A stretch of 64,000 bases of DNA, taken from an uncultured Alphaproteobacteria bacterium. Lineage in GTDB: Bacteria > Pseudomonadota > Alphaproteobacteria > Rs-D84. Location: positions 99,214 to 163,213 of the forward strand of contig CATLAX010000001.1 of NCBI GenBank assembly GCA_949878575.1. Direction: 5' to 3'. The position numbers were made by a program, and so were the translations under genes. Numbering within the stretch: position 1 is the stretch's first letter; each line of letters starts with the position of its first letter. Of this stretch, positions 21,087 through 59,257 are shown one piece after another. Below the pieces are notes generated by a model that had not been told where the DNA came from, searched no databases, and worked only from the letters and a program-made list of their open reading frames with translations.

Positions 21087-23174
21087 ATGGTGAATTTAAT
21101 GCTAGAAAATCTTAACGACGCACAGCGCGCCGCCGTCACCACGACAGAGGGGCCGCTGCTGGTGCTGTCCGGGGCGGGAACGGGCAAGACGCGGGTGCTG
21201 ACCACGCGGGTTGCGTATATTTTGCAATCCGGTCTGGCCATGCCGTGGCAGGTCTTGGCGCTGACCTTTACCAACAAGGCCGCGAACGAGATGAAGGCAC
21301 GTATCGCCGCATTTGCAGAAAGCGGCGGCGTCGCGTCGCGCGACCTGTGGTGCGGAACGTTCCATTCCATTGCGCTGCGTATACTGCGGGCGAATGCAGA
21401 TGCCGCGGGCCTGCGCCGTGATTTTATCGTGTACGGCGACGACGATCAAAAGGCGGTTGTGAAAAATGTTCTGGCCGCGATGGGAATGTCCACAAAAACG
21501 CCGGCGGAATATGTGGAACGCTTTTCGGCCGTCAAAGACCGGGGACTGGCCGCGGCCGGCTGCGACGACAAGATTTTTCTGGCGTACAATGAGGAGCTGG
21601 CCCGTCTGGGGGCGGTGGATTTCGGTGACATTATTTTAAAGGTTCTGCAACTGTTTGACGCGCGGCCCGATATTTTGCAGCGGTATCAAAATCAGTTCAA
21701 ATATATTCTGGTGGACGAGTTTCAGGATACAAATCATGCCCAGATGGAATTTCTGGAAATGCTGACGCGCGGGGCGGCGGCGCCGAACATATGCTGTGTC
21801 GGTGATGACGACCAGTCCATTTATTCGTGGCGCGGTGCGGAAATTCGCCACATTTTAAATTTTGACAAAACATTTGCCGGCGCGGGCGTTATACGCCTGG
21901 AAACAAATTACCGCAGCACGCCGAATATTTTGGGGGCGGCAAATTCGCTGATACGGCATAACCGCGGGAGACTTGGCAAAGATTTGCGCAGTGCGGACGA
22001 TGCCGCGGCCGGCGAACCGGTATATGTTTTAACCGTCCCTGGCGACTGGGACGAGGCGCGTGTTGTTGCCGATGCGATTGTTCGTGACGGCGAGGCGGAC
22101 TATGGGGCGTTCGCGGTGCTGATAAGGGCCGGGGCCCTGTCGCGGCTGTTTGAAGAGGAATTTGCGCGCCGCGGTATCCCGTACCGTTTGATAGGCGCGA
22201 CAAAGTTTTACGACCGCACGGAAATCCGTGACGCGATTGCGTATATCCGCTTAATGGTGTACCGGTTTGACGATGTTTCTTTTCAGCGCATAATCGGCAG
22301 GCCGCGGCGCGGGTTTGGCGGGGCGGCGCTGGACAAAATGCGCGCATGCGGCGGGGACCTGATGTCGGGGCTGATAAACGCGCAATTTACCGTGAAACAG
22401 CGCGCGGCCGCTGATGACTTCTTAAACGCGTTTGATTTTGACTGGGCCGCAATGCCCCCGGCCGAGGCGGCGCAGACATTGTTGGAACGCGCAGGTTACC
22501 TAAAAATGTGGCGCGAATCCAAGGATACGGATGCCCCTGACCGGCTGGACAATCTGCGCGAGCTGTTTACGAACGTTATCGCAAAGTACGACACGCTGGC
22601 GGATTTTCTGGAACAGGCCGCGTTAATGATGACCGATGACGACGCCGATGCGGCGGCAATGGGGGCCGCCGTCAGCATAATGACAATTCATGCCGCCAAA
22701 GGGCTGGAATTTGACACGGTGTTTCTGCCCGCCTGGGAAGAGGGGATATTCCCCAACGACAAAACGGTGGAGGAGGGCGCACTGGAAGAAGAGCGCAGGC
22801 TGGCCTATGTCGCGATTACGCGCGCGCGGCGCCGGGCGGTTATAATAAACGCAATGTCGCGGCGTTTGTTCGGCGAACAGAAATATAATTCCCCCAGCCG
22901 GTTTATTGACGAGATGGACGAGCGCTATCTGGATTTTCAGGGCGGGGCCCCGCGCGGCGCGCGAATGTCGGAAAACCGGATTCCAACATCTTATGGGGTG
23001 CGGCGTCGGCAGTCGCGCGCAGTGGCGCGGGAAAGTGCGGTCGGGCGTCTGGTCGCGCATGTTGAAATGGGCCGCGGTGTCGTGATAGAGGATGCGGGCG
23101 AAATTTTAACCGTTGCATTTAAAGAGCGCGGAATAAAAAAGGTCGCACGGCAGTATTTGTCGTTTGAATCTTAA
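21087..23174 (+). CDS. uvrD: UvrD/PcrA ATP-dependent DNA helicase
   Basis: LSGAGTGKTRVL, VDEFQDTN, VGDDDQSIYSWRGA, NYRS, MTIHAAKGLEF, EEERRLAYVAITRA; start may be 21099. Confidence 0.93.
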   Translation: MVNLMLENLNDAQRAAVTTTEGPLLVLSGAGTGKTRVLTTRVAYILQSGLAMPWQVLALTFTNKAANEMKARIAAFAESGGVASRDLWCGTFHSIALRILRANADAAGLRRDFIVYGDDDQKAVVKNVLAAMGMSTKTPAEYVERFSAVKDRGLAAAGCDDKIFLAYNEELARLGAVDFGDIILKVLQLFDARPDILQRYQNQFKYILVDEFQDTNHAQMEFLEMLTRGAAAPNICCVGDDDQSIYSWRGAEIRHILNFDKTFAGAGVIRLETNYRSTPNILGAANSLIRHNRGRLGKDLRSADDAAAGEPVYVLTVPGDWDEARVVADAIVRDGEADYGAFAVLIRAGALSRLFEEEFARRGIPYRLIGATKFYDRTEIRDAIAYIRLMVYRFDDVSFQRIIGRPRRGFGGAALDKMRACGGDLMSGLINAQFTVKQRAAADDFLNAFDFDWAAMPPAEAAQTLLERAGYLKMWRESKDTDAPDRLDNLRELFTNVIAKYDTLADFLEQAALMMTDDDADAAAMGAAVSIMTIHAAKGLEFDTVFLPAWEEGIFPNDKTVEEGALEEERRLAYVAITRARRRAVIINAMSRRLFGEQKYNSPSRFIDEMDERYLDFQGGAPRGARMSENRIPTSYGVRRRQSRAVARESAVGRLVAHVEMGRGVVIEDAGEILTVAFKERGIKKVARQYLSFES

Positions 23175-23179
23175 AACGA

Positions 23180-24493
23180 TTATTTCTTTTTTGACTGGCG
23201 GTATGCGCGCCAGTATTTTTGACCCTGTTTGTAGGCGTTTTGGGTAAGGCGCGTTATGTCCTTGCCCAGCTGTTGGCCGATGGAATCGTCAACACTGCCG
23301 CCGATGTCGCCGGCAATGTCTTTTAGTTTGTTCGCCAAATATCCCACCAACAGCACCACGAGCAGGGTGATTACAAAATCCTGGTTGTCAAGCGACGGCA
23401 CGGACGCGGCCAGGTTCGCGTCTATCACGCCGGATAGCAGCGCCGTGCACAGCGCAATCACCATCGCAAGCGATACAAAGAAAATGGCGGCGTTTATAAA
23501 GCGGCCTATCTGTGATGACAGCGACGCCGGTTTGAACAGCGACAGAAAACCGTTAAAGACCGTTCCGGCGATGCCCTTGTACGATGTCTTGCCGACGGTT
23601 TCCGCAATCGCCGTAAACGGGAGCAAAAATATTGTCAAAAACAAATCCGCAATCACGCCCATCGCCATCAGCGCGAATTTCCACAGATTTATTAAAGACA
23701 CGACTATGAACACGGCGCCGACGAAAAACGTAAATGCGCTGGACCCGATGCCGGCCAGCATCCATTTCCATCCGGCCGCAATGGACGTATAGAAAAATCC
23801 GGACATCCGTGTCGGCAGACACATTAAATCCGCGGCCGCCGCGGCGTCAATGGCGGCGTTGCCGGATATGTTGGCGGCCGCGTATTCACGGATTGCGCCG
23901 CATGTATCCGGCAGCGTCGCGCCAGCGACGGATGTGACGGCGTTTAGTATCAAATCGGCCATATACGTGCCGACTGTTATAATCGGCCCCATTATCCACA
24001 TGAAAATTTTTGCCGGGCCGGCGTTGATAATAATCAGCCATACCGTAATCATAAAGCCCTTCTTTACGATGTTTTCCACGGACTTTTTCACGTCCAGGGT
24101 GCCGGTAATCATCTGGTATGCTTCAAATCCCGTCCAGAATGTGAACGCGATAAGTATAAATATTGTTATAAACCGTATCAGCGACATGTCCAGAACATGC
24201 CCGATAAGAGCCATGCCGTTTATAAAGGCCAGCCCAACCTTTGCCTCTATCGGAACATAATCCGCGACCTGTTGGTTTTGAAAACCGGATTGAAAGAAAT
24301 CCATGTCCTGGGACAGGGTAGATGTAAAAACCTCTCGGTTGTGGTCTGTCGCCCATCGGCCGTAATCGCCGACATCGCCGCCGGCCGCACCGGGCAGGTT
24401 GTCCGCGGCAATCGCGCCGGGGATAATCAGCGCGATACCAAAAAGGCATATGATAATTTTTGAAAAAATTCTGCGAATACTCATTTTTATCAT
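23180..24493 (-). CDS. polytopic membrane protein, VirB6/TrbL-like (paralogue 1)
   Basis: multi-TM, periplasmic Cys pair, ADLFLTIFLLPF core, basic C-terminus; resembles its neighbours. Confidence 0.55.
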   Translation of the reverse strand: MIKMSIRRIFSKIIICLFGIALIIPGAIAADNLPGAAGGDVGDYGRWATDHNREVFTSTLSQDMDFFQSGFQNQQVADYVPIEAKVGLAFINGMALIGHVLDMSLIRFITIFILIAFTFWTGFEAYQMITGTLDVKKSVENIVKKGFMITVWLIIINAGPAKIFMWIMGPIITVGTYMADLILNAVTSVAGATLPDTCGAIREYAAANISGNAAIDAAAAADLMCLPTRMSGFFYTSIAAGWKWMLAGIGSSAFTFFVGAVFIVVSLINLWKFALMAMGVIADLFLTIFLLPFTAIAETVGKTSYKGIAGTVFNGFLSLFKPASLSSQIGRFINAAIFFVSLAMVIALCTALLSGVIDANLAASVPSLDNQDFVITLLVVLLVGYLANKLKDIAGDIGGSVDDSIGQQLGKDITRLTQNAYKQGQKYWRAYRQSKKK

Positions 24494-31424: not shown

Positions 31425-31542
31425 ACATGATTTTTATGTATAGTGATTGTTTGAAGTTTTGGCGGGCGGCGTCGTTTTTTGTTGAGAAGGCGCAATGCAC
31501 GGCGCCGCCCCGCATGAAAAAGACCACCGTAATAAATTATGG

Positions 31543-31627
31543 CGGTCGGGGTGTTTACAAAGCATAACGTGGTGCCCCTGCCGGTCTTTGGCCAAAGCCT
31601 GTTTTATAACCAACAGCACCCCGACCG
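31543..31627 (-). ncRNA. C4/CI-like antisense RNA (copy A)
   Basis: 11-bp closing stem CGGTCGGGGTG/CACCCCGACCG, two internal stems, segments CGTTATG and TTGTAAA complementary to upstream CATAACG and TTTACAA. Confidence 0.6.
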
Positions 31628-31751
31628 TACTGTCAGAGTGTAACGGTGCAAAATTGCAACCGTATACGGATTTCAGTCTGATGCAACTTGCACCGTTCGT
31701 TATGGGCTTGTAAAGGCCCCGAACCTAAATTCCCATTCAGATTCACTTATT

Positions 31752-42589: not shown

Positions 42590-43332
42590 CAAAAAGCAGA
42601 AAGGTTGTTCGTAAAAAACTGAAACAGGTAAAAAAAGATTCGCATGCGTCACACTTGTTGCGAGTGCTGCGTGCGGCCGGTCTGTTCCGGTGGGAGCGCC
42701 CGTCAAGCCGCGCCGAGGAAGTGTTGAATATTTTAACGCACGGTATCGGCATAGGGCTGGCGATGGCCGGATTGACACTGTTGGTGGTGTTTGCGGTATT
42801 GGCCCATAACACCTGGGCGATTGTGTCGTGTGCGATATTCGGGCTGACCATGTTCACGTTGTATTTCGGTTCCACCATGTGTCATGCGATGATCGGCCAA
42901 AAATCAGAGTGTTTTTTTGAGGTCTGGGACAGTGTCGCTATTTATGCGCTGATTGCCGGAACGTATACGCCGTTTTGTCTGGTTAATCTGCGCGGTGGAC
43001 TGGGGTGGACGGTATTCGGCATTTTATGGGCGATTACCATATTTGGTGCGGCAATGAAGATTGCGCGTCCCAAAGAGCAGCCGAAATGGATGGTGTTGCT
43101 GTATCTGGTCATGGGATGGACGCTGTTGTTTATTCTGCCGGCGATGCTGCGCCATATATCCGCGCGCGGAATGTGGTTTATTCTGGCGGGGGGGCTCTCG
43201 TATTCGCTGGGGGTGATATTTTACCTGTGGCGGCGCATGAAGTATTCCCATGCCGTGTGGCATCTGTTTGTAATCGGCGGCAGTGTGTGTTTCTTTTTCG
43301 CCGTTTTGTTCGGATGTATTATTGATTTCTAA
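42586..43332 (+). CDS. hemolysin III / PAQR family membrane protein
   Basis: EEVLNILTHGIG, DSVAIYALIAGTYTPF, HAVWHLFV. Confidence 0.92.
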   Translation: MTKSRKVVRKKLKQVKKDSHASHLLRVLRAAGLFRWERPSSRAEEVLNILTHGIGIGLAMAGLTLLVVFAVLAHNTWAIVSCAIFGLTMFTLYFGSTMCHAMIGQKSECFFEVWDSVAIYALIAGTYTPFCLVNLRGGLGWTVFGILWAITIFGAAMKIARPKEQPKWMVLLYLVMGWTLLFILPAMLRHISARGMWFILAGGLSYSLGVIFYLWRRMKYSHAVWHLFVIGGSVCFFFAVLFGCIIDF

Positions 43333-43358
43333 AAAAACGGGGGAGGCCCCGTTTTTTT
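43331..43358 (+). terminator. intrinsic terminator
   Basis: AAAAAAACGGGG-GAGG-CCCCGTTTTTTT. Confidence 0.85.
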
Positions 43359-43359
43359 A

Positions 43360-43387
43360 TTGTAAATGTTTTTGTTGAATATATAAT
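43360..43387 (+). promoter_or_regulatory. sigma70-type promoter for the copy B leader
   Basis: TTGTAA-16 bp-TATAAT. Confidence 0.6.
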
Positions 43388-43478
43388 TTTTTATGTCTTT
43401 GGGTGTTTCAAAGACGGGACCTAGAAATCTCTTGCAAAGCGCAGGGCGTGTTTAACACCTGTGAAAAATCCCAACCGT

Positions 43479-43549
43479 TGGTTGGGAGAGTGCCGAATAT
43501 ATAGAATAAGGCACGCAATTTCTTTGGATTGTTTCTAGTCTCCCGACCA
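43479..43549 (+). ncRNA. C4/CI-like antisense RNA (copy B)
   Basis: closing stem TGGTTGGGAGA/TCTCCCGACCA, P2 GTGCC/GGCAC, P3 GCAATT/GATTGT, junction TTTCTAG complementary to upstream CTAGAAA. Confidence 0.65.
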
Positions 43550-43572
43550 TCAGAAATGATGGTTGTTTTTTT
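43545..43572 (+). terminator. leader terminator hairpin
   Basis: GACCATCA-GAAA-TGATGGTT followed by GTTTTTTT, upstream of the DUF1796 start. Confidence 0.7.
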
Positions 43573-43604
43573 GCAAATACGATAGGAATAAAAGGAAATT
43601 GCAA

Positions 43605-44657
43605 ATGAAGGATTTTACCGCAAATTTTGTTTCAATGTTTATTGCGGACAAAAAACGCCGTCGTACGGTGCGCCGTAAAATAAAACACTGGAATGAACTG
43701 ATTTTGCCGACAGATGCGCAAAAAATGATAGCCGCCGCCACGGCACAGAATTTAGAGCAGGCGAGGAAAGAATATGATTTGTCAAAACTGCGTGAGGCCG
43801 CGGCAAAAAATCATGATTTGGCACGTCAATATATTGAGGTAAAAAAACAATGGCGCCGTCGGTGTGGCGGCGCGGCACCATTGCCGGGACGCTTTGCGGA
43901 ATATGATTTGGTGTTCGCAATAGGGGCGACATGTCATGTTTCATCGTTGTTGGCCTTTCATAAACTGCGCACGTTTTCGTCGCCGTTGGAATGGACTGCG
44001 GGGACAGAGCCGGAATTTTGGTATTCCAAACCGAATATATGGCGGGATTCGCGTTTTAAAGAGAAAATAAACGCGTTGTGCAACGATTTTAAAGACTGGT
44101 TTAATCCCGGTGATTTGCGGCCGGTAAGTCATTGGATGGCTAAAGAGGCGCATCAGGGCATTATAAACACAAAAACAAATATCAGATGGATGCATTTGTT
44201 TTCCAACAAAGAAAGTTTTGAATTGCAGATTGATAAAATACGTCAAAAAATGCAGATGCGTTCTGACAGGCTGCTTAAAGCCATAGCTGAATCGGAGCGT
44301 GTATTGGTGTGCTGGGTTGCCACTGTTGGCGATCAATGCTGTTTATTGGAGGCGCCCGTTTCTGATAAAGACATAAAGGATGCGCTAAAAAAACTGCATA
44401 AAAAATGGCCGGGCAAAGAATTTGATTTCGTTTTCTTTGAGCATGACGGGCGTAAAAATATATATGAATTTGACAGGATAGAGGTTGCGCCCAGCGCATA
44501 TCGTGTTCGCAGCAACCATTTCTTTAATGAAAATGCATATCGTTTTGTTGCGTCTTATTTGGAACATATTTGGCCAGAACCGGTAATGGCCGAAATGCTG
44601 GATAACGTATCCCTGACGGACAAGTTGGCGGATTTTATGAAGGCGGAGCAGGGATAG
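43605..44657 (+). CDS. DUF1796-like putative papain-fold cysteine peptidase
   Basis: YDLVFAIGATCHVSSLLAFHKLRTFSSPLEW matches the S/AxGxxC...LRxxSxPxD/EW pattern; RBS AAGGA. Confidence 0.65.
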   Translation: MKDFTANFVSMFIADKKRRRTVRRKIKHWNELILPTDAQKMIAAATAQNLEQARKEYDLSKLREAAAKNHDLARQYIEVKKQWRRRCGGAAPLPGRFAEYDLVFAIGATCHVSSLLAFHKLRTFSSPLEWTAGTEPEFWYSKPNIWRDSRFKEKINALCNDFKDWFNPGDLRPVSHWMAKEAHQGIINTKTNIRWMHLFSNKESFELQIDKIRQKMQMRSDRLLKAIAESERVLVCWVATVGDQCCLLEAPVSDKDIKDALKKLHKKWPGKEFDFVFFEHDGRKNIYEFDRIEVAPSAYRVRSNHFFNENAYRFVASYLEHIWPEPVMAEMLDNVSLTDKLADFMKAEQG

Positions 44658-59181: not shown

Positions 59182-59257
59182 TGGTGGGCGCGCAGGGACT
59201 CGAACCCTGGACCCACTGATTAAGAGTCAGTTGCTCTACCAACTGAGCTACGCACCC
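59182..59257 (-). tRNA. tRNA-Lys (anticodon CTT)
   Basis: GGGTGCGTAGCTCAGTTGGTAGAGCAACTGACTCTTAATCAGTGGGTCCAGGGTTCGAGTCCCTGCGCGCCCACCA. Confidence 0.97.

Follow-up and report, generated by a model that had tools for sequence, protein, structure and literature searches.

A large family of C4-like RNA cassettes, probably antisense RNAs specific for their own leaders, in small-genome gut Alphaproteobacteria

Why does a leader built like the immunity region of a phage precede a chromosomal gene of the DUF1796 family? The gene (43605..44657, + strand, ATG at 43605, 350 amino acids) lies in a 64,000-nucleotide (nt) stretch of contig CATLAX010000001.1 from an uncultured alphaproteobacterium. This whole stretch is the window to which all positions below refer, and all elements of the cassette are on its + strand. 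A sequence-only reading had proposed that a phage-type C4 antisense-RNA switch was co-opted here to silence this one gene. Our analysis retains the C4-type layout and finds the proposed scope too narrow, since it leaned on a downstream target pair that the family does not keep. We consider it probable (roughly 0.6) that the locus is a member of a large clade of C4/c4-a1b1-type antisense RNAs, missed by Rfam, in which each RNA acts specifically on its own leader. The clade belongs to small-genome gut Alphaproteobacteria.

The core of the cassette is a C4-like three-way-junction RNA at 43480..43548, whose stem P1 (43480-89/43539-48) encloses two hairpins, P2 (43490-94/43510-14) and P3 (43516-19/43528-31). 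It carries two seeds: b' (GCAATTTCTTTGG, 43515..43527) is the 5' strand and loop of P3, with CTTTG in the loop, and a' (TTTCTAG, 43532..43538) is the junction between P3 and the 3' arm of P1. The leader offers a complement to each. The a1 target (43421-43427) is the loop of a hairpin, GGGA-CCTAGAAA-TCTC (43416..43431), and is complementary to a', and the b1 target CAAAG (43435..43439) is complementary to the P3 loop. Between leader and RNA lies X (TCCCAACC, 43469..43476), a near-copy of the 3' arm of P1 that is able to pair with the 5' arm; the resulting anti-P1 hairpin X:Y (TCCCAACC-GTT-GGTTGGGA, 43469-43487) competes for that arm. An intrinsic terminator (43544..43572) with a 9-base-pair (bp) stem and a GAAA loop (hairpin 43544-43565, T run 43566-72) overlaps the 3' arm of P1 by 5 nt. 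Every element listed in the sequence-only reading is indeed present where it had been placed. That these elements are more than chance is confirmed by a fold z-score of -3.1 against shuffles (RNA plus terminator), by their conservation in a family, by the covariation of a1/a' and b1/b', and by the retention of X:Y.

The RNA is one of many. When 40 relatives were first searched by blastn with the region, 12 of 24 genus genomes showed the RNA core, and the own genome a second copy. A covariance model built from 11 copies (R1), which scores the window RNA at 85.6 bits (E 1.7e-22, at 43476-43556), then gave 26 hits in the own genome of 945 kilobases, where nhmmer finds about 25 copies, some of them in tandem at a spacing of about 200 nt. 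With R1, the RNA is found in 138 of 151 sampled genomes of the genus, many of which hold at least 31 scored candidates, and in 126 of 151 sampled genomes of the order, covering 14 of its 22 genera. Across the class, single hits of 32-37 bits occur in 4 of 149 other families; their architecture is that of the family and Rfam calls none of them. Public records with the RNA bear the titles Candidatus Enterousia, uncultured Alphaproteobacteria or "Rickettsiales" and come from animal guts. Pattern matches in Prochlorococcus (L055, L123) and Saccharicrinis (L127) were discarded as chance, as R1 does not hit them. The idea of a single switch co-opted to one gene therefore has to be replaced: there are about 25 paralogous cassettes per genome, the window's being one of them, and the clade extends across the order.

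The copies share a structure rather than a specificity. The three-way junction together with the a1 hairpin is 93.9% paired, and 21 of its 27 pairs are changed on both sides; the stem of the a1 hairpin is kept in 94.0% of cells. The 15-nt loop of P2 (GAATATATNGAATAA, 43495-43509 in the window) is nearly invariant and is recognisable even in a distant class-level hit (L191). In 103 of 134 unique copies the RNA is followed by a hairpin and T run resembling a terminator. The seeds and their leader targets, on the other hand, are proper to each copy: every homolog inspected by eye has its own a1/a' and b1/b' pair. Measured on 142 unique copies, the longest stretch perfectly complementary to a' averages 7.2 nt in the 150 nt upstream of the same RNA and 4.7 nt in those of other copies; for b' the figures are 7.5 and 5.5 nt. 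Among 128 copies unique by seed pair, the duplex energy with the upstream region is -7.63 for self and -5.08 for non-self in the case of a' (p 7e-43), and -9.16 against -6.82 in the case of b' (p 9e-24). These self versus non-self comparisons are unselected and are the fair tests of the match between seed and leader. Within the own genome, a1 reaches at least 6 nt in 19 of 24 copies and b1 in 22 of 24.

Helix by helix, an alignment of 78 leader-plus-RNA sequences gives the same picture. The a1:a' helix is 92.4% paired, with 8 of 8 pairs changed on both sides, a count biased upward by the choice of these sequences by the position of their best a1 match. The b helices are 73-76% paired, a figure limited by the MAFFT alignment, and X:Y is paired in 93.6% of cells. 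Many pairs are G.U (one position has GC:36 and GU:25), which fits pairing in an RNA of the + strand. The covariation expected of a1/a' and b1/b' has thus been found, copy by copy and in both helices, and the conserved target of the RNA is, on these grounds, predicted to be its own leader.

The strongest pointer to how these pairs are used comes from recent duplicates. Over about 400 alignment columns, an 84-amino-acid gene included, cassettes C2:185k and C2:295k of the own genome are almost the same. Their differences fall at 17 of 38 seed columns, which were marked only after the alignments had been viewed, and at 9 of 368 other columns (Fisher p 1.3e-13), and a1:a' and b1:b' stay matched despite the changes. 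A trio of cassettes, C1:439k, C2:367k and C2:403k, shows the same seed-focused divergence (p 2e-6 to 4e-9). This argues for selected, copy-specific recognition. It is our main reason for preferring recognition in trans, as in the heteroimmunity of phages P1 and P7 (PMC5320573), with selection against cross-talk, because a helix that forms only in cis should not outpace synonymous sites.

A second pair of possible targets lies between the terminator and the gene. In the window, candidate a2 (TAGGAA, 43583..43588) could form 6 bp with a', one of them G.U, and is weak taken alone; candidate b2 (AAGGAAATTGC, 43592..43602) could form 11 bp with 43515-25, one of them G.U, and lies over the Shine-Dalgarno region. 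Of 2560 non-self comparisons, 43 also contain a run of at least 11. With a joint a2+b2 score of 18, the window is the clearest case of such a pair over a ribosome-binding site. Seven cassettes ahead of DUF1796-like genes could be compared, that of the window and those of six orthologs. The pair is clear in the window and in ortholog L174, there is a partial b2 in L168, and four have none. In L174, whose open reading frame (ORF) is intact, exact a2 and b2 sites next to the ATG match its own seeds, which are unlike those of the window; a2/b2 therefore covary with the seeds between the two. When the own genome was scanned for an a-site followed by a b-site, the result was noisy and held only cis sites and neighbouring tandem units.

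Could the same sequences work without any RNA acting in trans? The leader might be a purely cis switch in which a1:a' and b1:b' are long-range helices of one transcript. It would toggle between a locked fold, with X:Y and a full terminator, and the three-way junction, with P1 formed and the terminator weakened by 4-5 nt; transcription kinetics or a factor on the conserved P2 loop would set the switch. Ensemble folding of the whole precursor (leader, RNA and terminator of 132 unique copies) speaks for this idea, in that a nested locked fold dominates: a' pairs with the leader at a probability above 0.5 in 115 of 132 copies, X:Y exceeds 0.5 in 115 of 132 as well, and the end of the 3' arm of P1 pairs into the terminator with a mean of 0.68. 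The two folds both show covariation, the P2 loop is as invariant as a binding site would be, and most cassettes have no downstream target. Nothing about a cis-only helix, however, would make it diverge about 20 times as fast as the remainder of a duplicate, synonymous sites included, and the presence of a2/b2 in the window and in L174 does not fit it either. Nor do two leaderless copies, C2:180375-180453 (L202) and C1:328671-328752 (L211), which stand at the heads of tandem arrays with a TATAAT-like box abutting P1 and would make the RNA without a cis partner. Their own seed matches are probably chance, and no convincing site matching them was found in the own genome. On balance we regard a switch confined to cis as rather unlikely, and prefer an RNA that recognizes its own leader in trans.

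Several points weigh against this preference and must be set beside the evidence given so far, together with the selection of the 78 sequences and the late marking of the seed columns. Gene conversion between copies could be an alternative source of the seed divergence. The C4 fold is rare in the equilibrium of the precursor, P1 exceeding 0.5 in just 8 of the 132 copies, and when a1/b1 is blocked in silico, P1 forms in only 24 of 108 copies, the window's not among them. An RCC-type motif (CC after the base following P1) is present in 68 of 134 copies, about half. No run on record as RNA contains the locus. Finally, across the 128 copies, neither a' (p 0.46) nor b' (p 0.2) matches its own downstream region better than that of other copies; a joint a2-then-b2 score of at least 15 is reached by 22 of 128 self and 241 of 2560 non-self comparisons, and several of the self hits fall on a1/b1 of the tandem unit that follows. 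With no family-wide signal of a2/b2, most cassettes would be without a target at the ribosome-binding site. The proposal that a2/b2 silences the gene over its ribosome-binding site may thus hold for the window, with an exact counterpart of the pair in L174, and does not describe the family; we take the pair to be probably real in the window but not family-defining.

The folding results also bear on how far the mechanism can be taken. We expect the C4 fold to form mainly after removal of the leader, or else kinetically. Trans binding at a1/b1 was considered as a means of controlling termination and set aside, as thermodynamics gives no support to it for the window copy; our models lead us to claim no direction for the effect on termination. 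The RCC motif was likewise dropped as a mark of RNase P, about half of the copies being without it. The P1 stem starts with GG in most copies. Two contigs that cover the locus, 43397-43618 and 43429-43618, come from two runs of one study labelled RNA-Seq that are rated as probably DNA, and nothing is concluded from them. The start of the first, 43397, is close to the predicted start of the transcript, and both end at 43618.

We can then sketch how a cassette might work, inferring its processing, its action in trans and any sign of its effect on termination. A single promoter would transcribe the leader with a1 and b1, the RNA of roughly 70 nt with b' and a', the terminator and then the gene, and most transcripts would end at the terminator. 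In the unprocessed precursor the seeds would be locked onto a1/b1 in cis while X holds the 5' arm of P1. After 5' processing, which RNase P carries out on a longer precursor to make the 5' end of phage P1 C4 (PMC5320573), the RNA would take the C4 fold. The mature RNA would act in trans solely on transcripts that carry its own a/b code, and in every cassette the own leader would be the matching target. In the window and in one ortholog, pairing with a2/b2 over the ribosome-binding site would in addition block translation, as C4 of phage P1 does at icd. Each downstream gene would in this way come under a feedback private to its own copy of the cassette. A sigma-70-like promoter is found in the window at 43360..43387 (-35 TTGTAA, 16-nt spacer, -10 TATAAT, 10/12 consensus matches), and a TATAAT-like box lies at equal distance 5' of the first hairpin in other copies too. 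Between 43387 and the ATG at 43605 no second promoter-like site was found on the + strand, which supports the view that the promoter of the cassette drives the gene.

What do these cassettes control? The protein encoded at the window locus was correctly assigned to the DUF1796 family: Pfam PF08795 matches residues 103-132 alone, with 23.1 bits at a cut-off of 23, and the same family is common to 30 of 30 Atlas hits. NCBIfam gave no match, and PDB none below E 0.24. A search for relatives of the protein in a collection of genome contigs found none, and a genus-wide genome search then found DUF1796-like orthologs, of 40-48% identity, in 8 genus genomes at 9 places. These proteins (43605-43700 in the window; L167-L174) have in common a basic N-terminal motif, a hydrophobic stretch followed by FIP-like residues and then a K/R-rich segment, which is kept though the remainder is only 40-48% identical. 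A C4-like RNA precedes the gene at 6 of the 8 orthologous loci examined.

This retention matters for the least favourable account of the family, in which the cassette is a selfish or decaying mobile repeat that bears a promoter and whose RNA structure currently regulates nothing. Such an origin would go well with the high copy number, the tandem arrays and the near-identical duplicates of about 480 bp. It is hard to reconcile with an RNA retained ahead of six of eight orthologous genes whose products have diverged this far, with a structure and a seed-leader match kept across 14 of 22 genera with compensatory changes, and with genomes so small (about 0.9 megabases) that useless DNA would be expected to be shed. 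We consider it very improbable.

Elsewhere in the own genome the genes behind the cassettes are mostly short. By a simple rule, 17 of 25 copies have a downstream ORF, mostly of 67-116 amino acids and beginning 37-57 nt 3' of the RNA. Of the downstream proteins tested first, 8 of 10 matched XRE-type helix-turn-helix (HTH) families (E up to 0.01), 3 of them above Pfam cut-offs; four further proteins gave no hit, although two of them are closely paralogous to a weakly matching protein. Same-strand ORFs behind the small HTH genes look spurious, and we do not claim operons there. In cassettes preceding these genes, a near-palindrome, GTAAATATTTGC, lies over the -35 region (own-genome sites L203:3201-3761 and L205:3240-3800, alignment columns about 166-190; also upstream of the C1:298k and C2:403k copies); a conserved GCAATCCA and a variable hairpin stand ahead of it. 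The product of the downstream HTH gene may use this near-palindrome as its operator, and the RNA feedback would then be joined by one through protein.

The abundance of such regulators could also suggest a defensive role. C4 and the CI RNA of phage P4 are immunity determinants with heteroimmune seeds (PMC5320573, PMC4825925), and the family might be a library of C4-type immunity RNAs directed at sites in phages or mobile elements, with a1/b1 serving as a cis lock or antidote. Fast diversification of seeds, the position of many cassettes ahead of small XRE-type HTH genes, as in immunity regions (the 8 of 10 proteins just mentioned), and, for most copies, the lack of any persuasive second site within the own genome would all be accounted for. 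Yet no phage or mobile-element target came to light, though no search aimed at one was made; the cassettes stand 25-60 nt ahead of chromosomal genes that lack a separate promoter, as would suit control of these genes; and the a2/b2 sites of the window and L174 are chromosomal. Immunity against foreign elements is therefore, in our judgement, a quite unlikely main function, though less unlikely than the decaying repeat, and control of the adjoining gene through its own leader remains our preferred reading. The surroundings of the locus agree with what had been said of them: no phage genes are nearby, and the neighbours are gltX, an HlyIII-family gene, the DUF1796-family gene itself, thrS and a SPOR-domain gene, that is, housekeeping genes and not a phage or prophage immunity context such as icd/ant.

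How, then, is the family related to the RNAs from which its name is borrowed? At gathering thresholds Rfam reports nothing at the locus. Neither C4 (RF01695, gathering 45 bits) nor c4-a1b1 (RF03163, gathering 46.7 bits) gives a hit at E up to 10 in 43300-43700, and for C4 there is none genome-wide. The best match there is sRNA-Xcc1 (RF02221), full-length (1-87), with 31.6 bits against a gathering threshold of 53 (E 9.4e-4). The Infernal comparison that the sequence-only reading had named as a check therefore came out negative, with none of the related models reaching threshold. On phage P1 (AF234172) the same models score 68.8 bits for C4 and 51 bits for c4-a1b1, both of clan CL00128, whereas R1 gives 5.9 bits on the phage P1 c4. 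The Rfam alignments on that phage bear out the layout attributed to it, and its annotation lists a1, b1, c4, a2, b2 and icd in this order, with a1 and b1 only as "putative" targets.

The window repeats this order and its details. After the promoter comes a 5' leader hairpin, H0 (43395..43415, 7 bp, loop GGTGTTT), which directly abuts the 4-bp a1 hairpin; then follow b1, the three-way-junction RNA and the candidate a2/b2 pair before the start codon. H0 has a hairpin at the equivalent position in other copies and matches the first hairpin of the Rfam c4-a1b1 consensus on phage P1, so that a 7-bp hairpin, a 4-bp hairpin with a1 in its loop and then b1 are found as in c4-a1b1. As in C4 of phages P1 and P7, the P1 stem encloses two hairpins, b' sits in the loop of the second (P3), a' is a 7-nt junction before the 3' arm of P1, and the seeds are the variable parts that give specificity. 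The differences are equally clear. The P1 stem has 10 bp here and 17 bp in the phage; P2 has a conserved 15-nt loop here and a UUCG tetraloop there; and the terminator overlapping the 3' arm, the upstream anti-P1 hairpin with X, the general absence of a2/b2, the chromosomal rather than icd/ant context and the number of about 25 copies per genome set the family apart. The relation to phage P1 C4 is thus one of architecture, without detectable sequence similarity. In cassettes L002, L006 and L009/L015 a GC-rich hairpin followed by a T run lies between b1 and the RNA, as in phage P1; it may release a separate a1b1 small RNA.

Other relatives by design share one or another part of this arrangement. 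In P4, the CI RNA pairs with seqA and seqC and causes transcription termination (PMC4825925). By that description the layouts are alike, with an RNA processed from a leader and complementary sites up- and downstream in one transcription unit, and the outcome in P4 makes the terminator next to the window RNA a plausible control point; the downstream site, however, is usually missing in our family. IsrK/STnc1160 of the Salmonella prophage Gifsy-1 (RF01394) likewise has a terminator after the small RNA, read-through into a messenger RNA and two alternative folds, and the short RNA works in trans on the read-through transcript of its own locus (PMC4825925). On phage P1, the Rfam isrK model aligns with the a1b1 region together with a terminator-like hairpin, and it has no hit in 43300-43700; IsrK activates translation of a prophage ORF (PMC4825925). 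The consensus of sRNA-Xcc1 of Xanthomonas and Xylella resembles the window RNA in its three-way junction and in two loop motifs, GAAUAA in that of P2 and CUUUG in that of P3. Five tandem sRNA-Xcc1 homologues are reported from Xylella, and in another strain C4 and isrK hits lie beside one (PMC12189769); the context described for sRNA-Xcc1 is an integron or genomic island, and the passages cited for it do not describe leaders with self-matching a1/b1.

The closest parallel in number is the set of C4-like small RNAs of Acinetobacter baumannii (Weiss et al. 2016, PMC5320573). Its "Group 1" has many C4-like RNAs on one chromosome, processed from longer transcripts and with their variation concentrated in the a' loop. 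It matches Rfam C4, unlike the window family, and its host is a gammaproteobacterium, whereas Enterousia-type genomes are far smaller; the portion of PMC5320573 cited mentions neither leader targets for each copy nor a seed-focused divergence of duplicates. For Proteobacteria and phages, "c4 antisense RNA" and "c4-a1b1" are among the entries of Weinberg et al. (2010), and c4-a1b1 is described in PMC2864571. In the literature we found no description of small RNAs of Enterousia or of C4 antisense RNA in Alphaproteobacteria.

Besides the cassette ahead of the DUF1796-family gene, its one strong R1 copy, the window holds two weak R1 hits that are possibly degenerate copies, at 23112-23186 (+; 21.1 bits, E 0.0011) and 31536-31630 (-; 19.4 bits, E 0.0034). 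A tRNA gene lies at 59185-59257 (-; Rfam, 73.8 bits).

C4-type RNAs are known from phages and, in the sources cited above, a few bacteria, and the family described here extends this record in several ways. It marks a gap in Rfam, since these RNAs are unannotated in several hundred gut metagenome-assembled genomes. As a1/b1 is the sole target kept by every copy, it is a good family for working out the role of a1/b1, and near-identical duplicates that differ almost only in their seeds are a ready system for studying the specificity of cross-reaction. A further and tentative idea, possible but in our view short of probable, is that in this order of reduced genomes a phage C4 immunity RNA has been turned into a general, programmable regulatory part, with dozens of orthogonal RNA/leader pairs per genome. 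Diversifying selection on two short seeds would keep the pairs apart, and each pair would serve one gene, often a small XRE-type regulator, with a private RNA feedback or a bistable switch. If this is true, these genomes would carry a natural library of orthogonal riboregulators, which would be the main gene-specific layer of control in an organism with few protein regulators.

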